Below, piece after piece: positions 904 to 5,704 of a stretch of 64,000 nucleotides of DNA (position 1 is the stretch's first letter; each line of letters opens with the position of its first letter). Location of the stretch: contig NC_043015.1 of NCBI RefSeq assembly GCF_006345805.1, positions 41,168,001-41,232,000 of the forward strand, given 5' to 3'. Origin of the DNA: Octopus sinensis (Eukaryota). A program made the translations under genes and the position numbers. The notes beneath the pieces are model-generated. The model had not been told where the DNA came from and ran no database searches. It saw only the letters and a list, made by a program, of their open reading frames with translations.

Positions 904-1327
904 ATGATTTTCATAATTTGTATATATTTATTTTATCATGAATGCAAAACACCACCATGGAGGAATCAATGTAAGTTTAGATAATAAATCGTGATAGGTG
1001 AACCATGATATGGTGAGGGATTACTCTAATCAGATAATCTAAGAGACAACAAACGGACCAGACATGGCTTTGCAGAGAACTGCAAACAATAGACTATTAA
1101 CAATGAGCCTTTTGTTTACAAACACGGGGAGGAGGGTGAGTACACACCGGTACACACACATTGTGTTGATGGAAGGTCGAAGGAAACTGATTATTTTACC
1201 AAGAGACAGGACAAATGGCAATTACACAAAGCACATGTTGAGAAGATATTCATAGTCAATCAATTTATCACATTACGGGATGTACTTGCATAGCAAGCGA
1301 CCTGATCTGAGATCATGTGCTGGAGCA

Positions 1328-1621
1328 AAAACAATTGCAGCGTGGAAGGTGTTTATAAGCCATTTAAAAAACACAGAAAAACCGTTAGATACACTTGAAC
1401 ATTTAAATTTAATTTGTCAAAATATTTTCGTTGCTTTGAGACCGAGACCTGTTCACTGACAAAATTCCATGCTGCATCTCGGAATTTCGTCAGTGAACAA
1501 GTCACAGTCTCAAAGCGACAAAAATATTTTGACAAATTAAATTTAAATGTTGAAGTGAATCTAACGGTTTTTGTGTGTTTCTTTAATGGCTTATAAACAC
1601 CTTCCACTCTGCAATTGTTTT
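1328..1621. repeat. ~294-bp imperfect palindrome (Penelope-like inverted terminal unit)
   Basis: Arms 1328-1468 and 1481-1621 are reverse complements (AAAACAATTGCAG...CTGCAATTGTTTT) with a 12-bp spacer. Confidence 0.9.
1413..1463 (-). ncRNA. Minimal hammerhead-like motif with G3:C8 core (left arm of palindrome)
   Basis: Minus strand: UUUGUCA-GUGAACA-G-GUCUC..GCAAC-GAAA-AUAUUU-UGACAAA. Stem I 7 bp, palindromic stem III region, stem II partly decayed. Confidence 0.5.
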
Positions 1622-2559: not shown

Positions 2560-2899
2560 CCTTGGATTTCAGAACAACCTGCTGTGCTTGAGGAGACCTA
2601 TTGAGTCAAGTACATGAACATCGAAATAAATATCAAATGGAAATAGTAGTTGTGATACCTGTGCCAGTGGCACGTAAAAAGCACCATCCGAGCGTGGCCG
2701 ATGCCAGACTCCACTGGCACGTAAAAAGCACCCACTACACTCACGGAGTGGTTGGCGTTAGGAAGGGCATCCAGCCGTAGAAACACTGCCAGATCAGACT
2801 GGAGCTTGGTGCAGCCTCCTGGCTTCCCAGACCCCGGTTGAACCGTCCAACCCGTGCTAGCACGGAAAATGGATGTTAAACGATGATGATGATGATGAT
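2560..2899 (+). mobile_element. RTE 3'UTR-derived repeat
   Basis: TGGCACGTAAAAAGCACC units, GGTTGGCGTTAGGAAGGGCATCCAGC core, (GAT)n tail; matches 60553-61100. Confidence 0.8.
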
Positions 2900-2914
2900 T
2901 ATTCTGTCAAGCAT

Positions 2915-3130
2915 ATCATCATCATCATCATCATCCACATCGTTTAACGTCCGCTTTCCATGCTAGCATGAGTTGGACGATTTTGACTGAGGACTGGCGA
3001 AACAGATGGCTGCACCAGGTTCCAATCTGATCTGGCAGAGTTTCTACAGCTGGATGCCCTTCCTAATGCCAACCACTCCGAGATTGTAGTGGGTGCTTTT
3101 TACGTGCCACCGGCACAAGGGCCAGTCTGG
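2915..3130 (-). mobile_element. RTE 3'UTR-derived repeat, tail-to-tail with previous copy
   Basis: (ATC)n then CGTTTAACGTCCGCTTTCCATGCTAGCATG... Confidence 0.8.
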
Positions 3131-4146
3131 CAGTATTCAAATTAGTTTGAATTAATCATGCATTAGCTCACTGCTTCTAGGTTTCAATGATGTGATAGCA
3201 TATTTTTAGAATGACATTGTAGGGTATGTGTGAGAGGCTGAATTTGGTCAGAACATAAAAAAAATGTGGAATGATGGAGGTCTTGCTGCTATTTCTAGCA
3301 GTTCTAGTGACCATATAGAGACTTATATTTACCTGTGATGACGATGATGATGATAATGGTTGCTGCTGTTTAACCTTAGTCTAATTCCTGTTGAGCAGAT
3401 CTATGATGGAAGGCATTCCAACCGTGACTATCCTGTCTTTTTCCTTTGCACAGAGAGCATAGATCCATATTGTTTCTCACATGTTCTTAATTGTTTTAAA
3501 AATCAGTCGGGTGTGAATTTAGGAAGTTTTGGTTACTATTTCTAGCAGAGTCTCGTCCATTGGCTCATTGCTGGGTTTGTAGTTCGATGGTGGTGGTGGT
3601 AGTGGTGGTGATGATGAGGATGATGATGATAATGATGGGGGGTGGGAATAAATACTACCTTTTCACATTCTTTCTAAGAGTTATAAGATTTTGGGATGGA
3701 TCCCATCTGCAACGAAAAGGGGGGAGTGGCAAGGGGGGGGAGAAGATTTATTATTTAATGTAACTTGACCAGTGAAATGTGTTGGGGTGGGGTGGCGTTA
3801 GGGCTTGGTATGATAATTATGAACATGACGATGATGACGACGATGGTGATGGTGATGATGGTGGGAATAAATGCTATCAGCAAAAGAGGTAAGCCTGAAT
3901 CTGTACCATGATTCATCACCTGTAATTAACTAAGAAACTTTATCTTCCTAAGTTTCATCAGAATCTTTTGATTTCAGTTAATTTAATCTATGGAAGATCA
4001 TACATATCACTTTTTTTATTGGGGATTGCCTTGTGTATGTGGGTTGTCTATTTTTGAAAGCTTTATACTTTAGTCATCACCACAGTTGTAGCATCCACTT
4101 TTCCATGCTTGCATGGGTTGGACAGAATTTGTTGAGGCAGGTTTTC

Positions 4147-4563
4147 TTATTTCTTTATTGCCCGCAAGGGGCTAAACATAGAGGGGACAAACAAGGACAG
4201 ACAAAGAGATGAACTCGATTACATCGACCCCTGTGCGTAACTGGTACTTAATTTATCGACCGCCGAAAGGATGAAAAGCAAAGTCGACCTCGGCAGAATT
4301 TGAACTCAGAATGTTACGGCAGACGAAATACCTATTTCTTTACTACCCACAAGGGGCTAAACATAGAGGGGACAAACAAGGACAGACAAAGGGATTAACT
4401 CGATTACATCGATCCCTGTGAGTAACTGGTACTTAATTTATCGATCTCGAAGGGATGAAAGGCAAAGTTGACCTCGGCGGAATTTGAACTCAGAACGTAG
4501 CGGCAGATGGAAATACTGCTAAGCATTTCACCTGACATGCTAATGCTTCTGCCAGCTTGCCCC
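4147..4563 (-). mobile_element. SINE B dimer
   Basis: Body duplicated head-to-tail. Confidence 0.88.
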
Positions 4564-4802
4564 TTGTCCAGGCAGGTTTTCTACAGCCAAAAGCCCTTCC
4601 TGTCAATAACCCCAATTTGCTTTTTCAAATCAGGTTATATTTTCCCCAAGTCGAACATGTTTTCGCATAAGATTTGGAAATGGATACTGCTTGTAGGATG
4701 GTGGAACTCATTTACAACTAGCATACACTGTCAAGATAAGGAGACACTAACACACACATACTCTCTCCTCTCTCTCTTACACATTGGTACCTCCAACTCT
4801 TC

Positions 4803-5148
4803 TTTATGTAATCAAGTGATCGTGGTCTACACATCTCATAAAGCATATGCATAGAGTAGGCCTATGTGTTTTAACTGGTTTATACTAAAGAATAAAGATA
4901 TTGTGAGTCAGACTCGGTATAGTTTTACTGACTCTGACTCCAGCTACCCCATAATTGTTTCTGACTCTGACTCGTGTTTATGTAATTAAGTGATTGTGGT
5001 CTACATAACTCAATGCATATTCATATGCTTGTACTTTGAGTAGGCCTCTATGTTATAACTGGTATAAATTAAAGAATAAAGACGTTGTGAGTCGGAGTCG
5101 GTATACTTTTACCGACTTAGACTCCACGACTCCAACTCCACAGCTCTG
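4803..5148. repeat. ~175-bp diverged tandem duplication with GACTCC motifs (probable DNA-transposon end)
   Basis: TTTATGTAAT(C/T)AAGTGAT.GTGGTCTACA...AAAGAATAAAGA..TTGTGAGTC present twice. Confidence 0.7.
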
Positions 5149-5704
5149 ATGATAATAATAATAATAATAATAATAATGATAAAAAAAAGAAACTACTGGC
5201 CTTGTGCCTAAATCAAAACTAATTACTAAAATCATTAAAGCTCTGCCAGAATAAAAAGAGAAAAAAAATATTGACTTATAACGAGTGTGGGTTGGTGGGG
5301 GATGGGTGGGGGGTGACCAAATATTTATGAAATTTATTGCATTGTAAATATTTTGTCTATGAATTCCTCTTATTTTGTTAAACCAACTTTTATTGTGTCT
5401 GAGGTTTTGTTAATTCTTTTATTTTTTTTTCCCTTTTCTTTTCTCTTTTTTTTTTATGGGTTAATGCCTGAAACTTGTCTGGTGTCCTCTGTTTGATTCG
5501 AGAGTCGGTAGAGTGGTGGTGGTGGTGGTTGTGGTGGTGGTGGTGGTGGTTGTGGTGATGGTGGTGGTGGTGGTGGTGGAGGTGTTTGTGGTATGGTGAT
5601 AGGAATGGTGGTGTAAGTTATTAAGTGAACCAGTGGTAATGCTGCACCAGAGAGGCGGGGTGGGCATGGGAAAGAAAAAAAAAGGTTTTCAGACAAATTT
5701 TAAG

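Follow-up and report, generated by a model that had tools for sequence, protein, structure and literature searches.

What is a 294-bp palindrome, each arm of which carries a hammerhead-like core with the pair between positions 3 and 8 apparently turned round, doing in an octopus chromosome? The question is raised by a stretch of 64,000 nucleotides from Octopus sinensis (RefSeq assembly GCF_006345805.1, contig NC_043015.1, positions 41,168,001 to 41,232,000 of the forward strand; hereafter the window), in which an original prediction had placed such a palindrome at positions 1,328 to 1,621 and had proposed that it represents a non-canonical hammerhead ribozyme family. We find that the palindrome is a minimal two-armed insertion of a Penelope-like element (PLE), present here as a decayed copy. 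Our reading, which we hold at a probability of roughly 0.8, is that it is a PLE stub produced by two-strand priming, with a copy of the minimal type-I hammerhead motif of its family in either arm, for which the cut is predicted at U17/U1.1. The palindromic form is PLE insertion architecture, known and ordinary for such elements, and not a ribozyme feature; the Penelope minimal hammerhead is likewise a known kind of motif, and the G3-C8 pair in its core appears to be new.

The palindrome with its listed motifs is indeed present: an inverted-repeat search recovers arms at 1328-1468 and 1481-1621, of 141 nt each, which are 91% complementary and separated by a 12-nt spacer. It is far beyond chance and a member of a repeat: with the 294 bases as query at least 3601 first-look candidates were obtained in the 2.72-Gb genome, and the 40 places that were scored all match over nearly the full length, with 88-93% identity. 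Beyond the palindrome the repeat unit extends to one side only (window 1275-1618). In alignments that include the flanks, similarity runs about 57 nt past the palindrome on that one side, while the other side ends ...CTGCAATTGT; the consensus of 26 copies is accordingly 345 nt long, comprising a 57-nt head and a 288-nt palindrome with 0 mismatches between its two 144-nt arms. Although the 26 palindromic copies were collected with a head-less query, all of them have the head on exactly one side. Target-site duplications (TSDs) of 6-20 bp (mode 11-14) were found at 41 of 47 distinct copies, many of which are located in (TA)n, and none at the remaining six; among these 47 copies with flanks there is no tandem array, only dispersed single units and two-copy segmental duplicates. 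Assembled contigs from four sequencing runs cover the unit from about 1279 to 1622, in agreement with its borders, and show the 345-base family to be present in four organisms. Across copies the divergence from the consensus is 2.3-7% (mean 4.9%), with CpG positions changed at 15% as against 2.5-4.1% at other positions; the differences between the arms of the window copy, to which the original prediction had drawn attention, are ordinary decay of this kind. The parts of the insertion in the window are as follows.

1264-1272, no strand: left TSD, TTTATCACA; the same 9-mer stands at 1625-1633, and the repeat becomes 13 bp with one mismatch if 1260-1272 is taken.
1275-1330, minus strand: tail (the head H, consensus 1-57), one-sided, the 3' end of the tail-bearing unit; it also ends full-length PLE copies.
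1331-1474, minus strand: arm A, a 5'-truncated PLE 3' end that continues into the tail (consensus 58-201).
1475-1618, plus strand: arm A', a second 5'-truncated PLE 3' end, without the tail, ending ...CTGCAATTGT.
1625-1633, no strand: right TSD, TTTATCACA, matching 1264-1272.

The origin of the unit is given by a copy split at its centre (locus L100), which leads to a longer family in which head and arm continue into further sequence. In another locus (L123) the longer element ends about 2 kb away in an antisense frame reading ...YIGETSRS...EH...CH...IPFRRTIP*, and other copies provide a fuller C-terminus, CQSNCAVC...GTVYQIECQEGAC...YIGETSRSINDRFKEH...QHAVDCH. Judged by these residues, the parent C-terminus is assigned to the GIY-YIG nucleases: it has a CxxxCxxC linker, a pair of Cys between GIY and YIG and two His residues, which together make up the PLE endonuclease signature (Craig et al. 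2021, PMC8557442). A protein search for the parent gave 109 scored matches, with open frames of up to 1053 amino acids. A 1042-amino-acid open reading frame (ORF; L161) is colinear (E=3e-9) with a protein from a different PLE family in this genome (L095), in which Pfam recognizes RVT_1 and GIY-YIG, and the alignment spans the reverse transcriptase (RT) blocks ...DVVSLY..., ...GGAIG... and RYVDD/RYLDD. In five of five ten-kb loci arm sequence in sense stands about 550-650 nt downstream of the ORF. In three of the five an inverted copy also lies upstream of the ORF, and at these three loci the 57-nt tail is on one copy and the other ends ...CAATTGT, the two copies being nearly identical. Among 19 single, one-armed copies, 10 have the tail, 6 end at the tail-less site and 3 have other deletions. 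Head and arm together make up the 3' end of an autonomous PLE with an RT and, at the C-terminal end, a GIY-YIG domain; the linkage to Penelope RT/GIY-YIG frames for which the original prediction had proposed to look is hence a physical one, the element being part of the retrotransposon. No sequence common with the 345-base element was found in 30 GIY-YIG loci and ten 10-kb loci of the L095-type PLE family, and Pfam finds no family in 10 long ORFs of the window. The split copy belongs to a larger palindrome of the same family (L100:249-1204), consisting of arm, about 320 nt more of 3' untranslated region (UTR), inverted copy, arm and tail; its centre differs, and two-armed insertions with different centres therefore arise repeatedly.

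What, then, do the arms carry? In the consensus the motif occupies 213-263, mirrored in the other arm, and reads UUUGUCA, GUGAACA, G, GUCGC, a 9-nt loop, GCGAC, GAAA, AUAUU, U, UGACAAA. In hammerhead numbering this amounts to a 7-bp helix I followed by G3 U4 G5 A6 A7 C8 A9 and one bulged G, then a 5-bp helix II with G10.1-C11.1, G12 A13 A14, A15.1 to U16.1, and U17; helix III, AAUAUU, is self-complementary, lacks a loop and consists of A-U only. In place of the core C3-U-G-A-N-G8-A, the consensus and both window arms have GUGAACA, with U4, G5, A6 and A9 kept. Positions 3 and 8 can pair Watson-Crick as G3-C8, a reciprocal swap found in the consensus and in all five full-length parent copies, and on the 3' side the consensus retains the GAAA, A15.1-U16.1 and a non-G residue at 17 (GAAA, then AAUAUU and U17). 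The predicted cut separates U17 from U1.1 and would probably be made by a dimer or with the help of a protein. In all five full-length loci an intact motif follows the ORF in sense, about 550-650 nt from the RT/endonuclease frame and about 140-190 nt from the 3' end, and it is also present in the inverted upstream copy. Helices I and II both appear in the minimum free energy (MFE) fold of the motif and in that of the 201-nt arm-plus-tail RNA. The helix II sequence GUCGC/GCGAC and the GAAA that had been proposed as consensus from the window copy are exactly the majority consensus of 26 genomic copies, while the extra purine and the palindromic stem III correspond to described hallmarks of Penelope minimal hammerheads, among whose recurrent traits are a base bulged out behind position 9, G10.1-C11.1 and a helix III that is palindromic (Cervera and de la Pena 2014, PMC4209133). 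In the window the two motifs are laid out as follows.

1413-1463, minus strand: arm A motif, UUUGUCA, GUGAACA, G, GUCUC, loop, GCAAC, GAAA, AUAUUU, UGACAAA.
1456-1450, minus strand: arm A core GUGAACA, with GAAA at 1431-1428 and the predicted cut between 1420 and 1419.
1486-1536, plus strand: arm A' motif, UUCGUCA, GUGAACA, A, GUCAC, loop, GCGAC, AAAA, AUAUUU, UGACAAA.
1493-1499, plus strand: arm A' core GUGAACA, with AAAA at 1520-1523 and the predicted cut between 1529 and 1530.

Stem I was thus correctly described as UUUGUCA/UGACAAA for the left arm, whereas the right arm has UUCGUCA with one mismatch. Helix II of arm A is broken (GUCUC/GCAAC), and arm A' has lost G12 and has one mismatch each in helix I and helix II. 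The window copy is to be regarded as dead from its sequence, with helix II broken in both arms and G12 changed in one; its remnant helix II and its AAAA are due to CpG decay.

Further Penelope families of the genome can be compared. A sister PLE family, with about 49% amino acid identity, has GGACCA CUGAUGC G GUCAC...GUGAC GAAA in six of six instances, at the same distance from the 3' end as the motif of the 345-base family. It has C3-G8 and the same bulged G; its helix II differs by one compensatory pair, its helix I is of different sequence and still paired, and position 9 is C. Positions 3/8 and helices I and II covary between Penelope families of this genome, an outcome in favour of the compensatory swap put forward in the original prediction. 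This motif of the sister family lies at L166:5371-5425, with counterparts at the corresponding place in L167-L169, and Rfam does not recover it at gathering. The same locus contains, within one sister-family insertion, a 1.75-kb inverted duplicate with 99.3% identity (L166:1-1740 vs 3482-5229), which is a large, young two-armed Penelope insertion. Other PLE loci have motifs with U3-A8 (L082, L090) or with canonical C3-G8 (L026, L031), so that three pair types at 3/8 occur in one genome. On the minus strand of L082 (about 2584) and of L090 (about 2575) the motif UUGAUAA ... GAAA CAUG adjoins GIY-YIG coding sequence, and the published natural U3-A8 core covariation (PMC4209133) therefore occurs in Octopus sinensis too. 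L031 and L032 (G000:C16:25146363-25146839) are canonical type-I hammerheads on the same strand, 431 bp apart, a spacing as expected for a tandem or pseudo-LTR (long terminal repeat) arrangement. In bench work on a PLE hammerhead, cleavage is regained in part by the C3G/G8C double mutant (Frangieh et al. 2024, PMC11167929, a study in which a Penelope hammerhead depended on protein), and a 'G3-C8 variant' is mentioned in PMC3884650, with data not shown there; no natural G3-C8 hammerhead was found in the literature searched. The motif is best read as a putative Penelope minimal hammerhead with a natural G3-C8 core pair, and it likely cleaves RNA.

A relaxed descriptor, which allows any Watson-Crick pair at 3/8 and 0 or 1 inserted base after A9 and was written after the motif had been seen, matches both strands of the consensus. 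Applied to 204 kb of fetched loci, it picks up 32 instances of the family and one canonical hammerhead, and in 1200 random 64-kb windows generated by a first-order Markov model it gives 0 matches, a null that is somewhat generous for a descriptor written post hoc. It also gives 0 matches in the window, which it misses because the window copy has decayed. Canonical hammerheads do exist in the same genome, with seven above the Rfam cut-off.

If the RNA is cut at U17/U1.1, some cDNAs should end at U1.1. A search for junctions in which a palindrome is centred at the cut gave one true case (L172): a two-armed insertion in (TA)n, both arms of which start UGACAAA exactly at U1.1, with the tail on one arm. 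The second junction match (L173) proved to be a chance one, with no similarity to the family. At L172:1478-1512 an 11-12-nt end, TTAATTTGTCA, stands three times in tandem on one arm at the junction, which could reflect repeated template slippage at the RNA 5' end. For a wider sample we took truncated copies adjoining (TA)n (27 start positions), from the first 100 of 273 matches, with 38 places fetched. The truncation points were taken from gapped alignment and from reading the junctions, and about 25-28 events were kept; left out were three non-truncated copies (L178, L190, L201), four with internal deletions (L186, L188, L199, L211) and those with unclear alignments (L174, L208-L210), while tandem or segmental duplicates (L177, L198) and the two arms of L179 were counted once. 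Five of the about 25-28 events start at U1.1, and two more probably do so, where about one would be expected per position; 8-10 events fall within +/-2 nt of U1.1, and every other position has at most about 3. By our own arithmetic the binomial tail is about 0.004 for 5/27. Truncated copies thus begin at the predicted cut more often than expected, an excess for which a stop of the RT at a three-way junction is an alternative source.

How did the two arms come to face each other? Descriptions of PLE insertions include a 5'-truncated copy in inverted orientation and, optionally, a tail at one end (PMC8557442). The purified PLE protein cuts and extends both DNA strands in vitro, reverse transcription starting at two internal sites, with the tail as the stretch between these (PMC11167929). 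By this precedent the 345-base insertion would consist of two head-to-head PLE 3'-end pieces, one with and one without the 57-base tail. Likely the RT-endonuclease cuts an AT-rich target and uses both of its strands to prime reverse transcription; one arm-length stretch of a single RNA would then be copied into cDNA twice, once for each arm, and the two cDNAs would meet at the self-complementary centre ...GTGCTGCAGCAC.... Copying of both arms from one RNA would account for the perfect consensus palindrome and for the changes that the arms share: in 44 non-redundant copies 74 changes are mirrored in both arms and 442 are in a single arm, whereas pairs made up of arms from different copies have 31.2 +/- 4.7 mirrored changes (2000 permutations, maximum 47). 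From this excess it follows that the arms of one copy share a history beyond subfamily and hot-spot effects. A palindromic transcript would be a hairpin whose 3' arm has both RT start sites, and the form could therefore re-make itself. A genome query with one copy (L009) returned no match above 94% identity. Cleavage as the definer of the palindrome's centre was discarded as an idea: the predicted cut lies 55 nt from the centre of the family, and cleavage therefore does not explain the palindromic shape. Going further, one might suppose that a natural G3-C8 hammerhead is active in vivo and cuts Penelope RNA at U17/U1.1, the cut RNAs being reverse-transcribed so as to leave copies that start at the cut, and, separately, that the 345-base palindrome perpetuates itself via two-strand priming on hairpin RNA; this extension is tentative, and we put its chances somewhat below even.

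Several points weigh against the stub with a hammerhead in each arm, and they concern the element, the motif and the mechanism in turn. As regards the element, Pfam finds no domain in the 1042-amino-acid ORF of L161 at E<=0.01, for which reason the RT call for the parent rests on the alignment with L095; in three parent-family ORFs nothing appears at E<=0.01, and only noise at E<=10. Moreover, the tail measures 57 nt here and 30-40 nt in the PLE insertions described (PMC8557442, PMC11167929). As regards the motif, all Rfam families stay below their gathering scores, both in the window and in 110 kb of 11 PLE loci, and the intact motif alone in 121 nt is recognized by no Rfam hammerhead model even at E<=10, which is also what the original prediction had anticipated in saying that CUGANGA-pattern searches would miss such a family. 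Taken whole, the palindromic RNA folds as one 144-bp hairpin, with an MFE of -264 kcal/mol vs -13.8 for the motif alone, and cofolding of two motifs gives a domain-swapped duplex in which the intermolecular helix III is not predicted. The footprint sample is small, comes from (TA)n flanks only and cannot separate U1.1 from G1.2. As regards the mechanism, in one copy (L010) the two arms differ in subtype at several positions, a misfit with a single template, and mirrored changes could alternatively come from arm-to-arm correction at the DNA level. Finally, the centre of the 345-base family is constant, 55 nt upstream of the predicted cut, and a constant centre needs a further assumption, either a hairpin RNA template or one founding event.

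The alternative that takes up most of these points accepts the Penelope stub and holds that the motif does not cut, being either a dead hammerhead descendant or a structured RNA signal, such as one for RT binding, that keeps two hairpins. It would agree with the silence of the covariance models, with a helix III that is weak and not predicted in the dimer fold, and with the conservation of the whole arm, rather than of the motif alone, at about 92% between subfamilies; further, Naiad PLEs thrive without canonical hammerheads (PMC8557442), and hammerhead activity is not needed for PLE insertion in vitro (PMC11167929), the latter counting against the hammerhead reading too. Yet a reciprocal 3/8 swap with U4, G5, A6, A9, G12-A14, A15.1-U16.1 and U17 intact is unlike random decay, and the change that has occurred avoids the structure: differences between subfamilies affect about 6 of 9 loop II positions and 0 of the 42 other motif positions, and non-CpG change amounts to 2.5% in the motif vs 4.1% in the rest of the arms. 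The pile-up of truncated copies at the predicted cut and the partial activity of the C3G/G8C double mutant in a PLE hammerhead point in the same direction, and we regard the non-cutting motif as possible, if on the whole doubtful.

Explanations that dispense with the Penelope origin fare much worse. Retroposition as a SINE-like (short interspersed nuclear element) unit transcribed by RNA polymerase III and mobilized by a LINE (long interspersed nuclear element), with a long 3' hairpin, would account for TSDs of variable length, a well-defined 5' end and the 3' ends in ...CAATTGT/TT/TTTT as a possible T-run terminator; against it, the head lacks tRNA, 5S or 7SL similarity at E<=10, head and arm are contiguous with a PLE 3' UTR, and a one-sided tail with inverted pairs is a hallmark of PLEs, so that it is improbable. 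A cut-and-paste miniature inverted-repeat transposable element (MITE) or foldback DNA transposon that resembles a hammerhead by chance is suggested by the near-perfect palindrome, small size, high copy number and AT-rich targets. However, the TSDs vary between 6 and 20 bp instead of having a fixed length, and the 57-nt extension is one-sided in 26 of 26 copies, the termini being asymmetric, by which two features a cut-and-paste MITE is excluded; its ends, too, are the 3' end of an RT/GIY-YIG retroelement, and the silence of the descriptor in the 1200 random windows speaks against chance resemblance, leaving this proposal very improbable as a whole. A hairpin-RNA or microRNA precursor gene is the least probable of all: at E<=10 the palindrome region is matched by long-hairpin miRNA models only, with no hammerhead model, and though these plant miRNA models reach E values of about 1e-13 to 1e-15, their 72-77 bits are far below the gathering scores of 200-211, both strands score alike, as for any long palindrome, and thousands of decaying copies with TSDs are not what such a gene would leave. 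We therefore return to the Penelope stub with a predicted hammerhead in each arm as the preferred reading.

Other repeats stand in the window as well. The segment 61883-62013, to which the original prediction had attributed the same head-to-head layout with unrelated sequence, is a 131-bp near-perfect palindrome inside (TA)n, unrelated to any locus fetched; it is thus only as an unrelated palindrome that the comparison was borne out. It is matched by no hammerhead model at E<=10, only by hairpin miRNA models below their cut-offs, and may be another two-armed retroelement stub. At 2659-3125 there is a palindromic repeat with arms 2715-2838 / 2986-3109 and an inner pair 2841-2902 / 2921-2982, copies of which occur at 73-90% identity in many fetched loci. 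Two further interspersed repeats, at 531-904 and 1931-2163, recur in the flanks of unrelated loci.

The interest of the swapped pair lies in the fact that hammerhead descriptors and covariance models take C3-G8 for an invariant pair. If the G3-C8 hammerhead is active in living cells, three of the four Watson-Crick pairs would have been put to use in evolution at positions 3/8 of the core, and hammerhead searches based on CUGANGA would miss whole retroelement families; Penelope families reported without a canonical hammerhead would then need re-examination with relaxed cores. A family of thousands of copies with a fixed G3-C8 swap would amount to a natural compensation experiment on the catalytic core. 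Independently of catalysis, two-armed stubs are a readable record of Penelope insertion, in which each insertion has a single tail and changes are mirrored between its arms, and this record bears on the still poorly known mechanism of two-strand priming.

The 345-base family may be set beside several known systems. With MITEs and foldback DNA transposons it shares a short AT-rich palindrome at high copy number, and differs from them in that its TSDs vary in length, its tail is asymmetric and its parent is a retroelement. Like the metazoan non-LTR retrozymes (PMC7229834; bioRxiv 10.64898/2026.07.22.740005), it is a non-coding, hammerhead-bearing derivative of PLE termini; those, however, are tandem arrays that give circular RNAs, whereas here we have dispersed single two-armed palindromes. 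The closest counterpart of the motif is the minimal hammerhead of PLEs (PMC4209133), with which it has in common the location in a PLE terminal region, an open helix I, the bulged base and G10.1-C11.1, a palindromic helix III without a loop and possibly suited to dimers, and the pairing of motifs on opposite strands a few hundred bases apart (100-700 bp in the elements of that study), while the 3/8 pair here is G-C, not C-G or U-A, and loop II has 8-9 nt. The swap itself is the same as in the engineered, partly active C3G/G8C mutants of the PAc Penelope hammerhead (PMC11167929, citing Martick and Scott 2006); those are laboratory constructs, whereas here it is fixed in a natural family whose activity is predicted. 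As to the insertion, the complex insertions of PLEs (PMC8557442, PMC11167929) provide the parallel for a parent with RT and C-terminal GIY-YIG, variable TSDs and a bias to (TA)n targets, as well as for head-to-head inverted copies, a one-sided tail and two alternative 3' ends. Unlike those, the two-armed form is here a 345-base family of its own, with a constant centre, thousands of copies and arms that share private changes.

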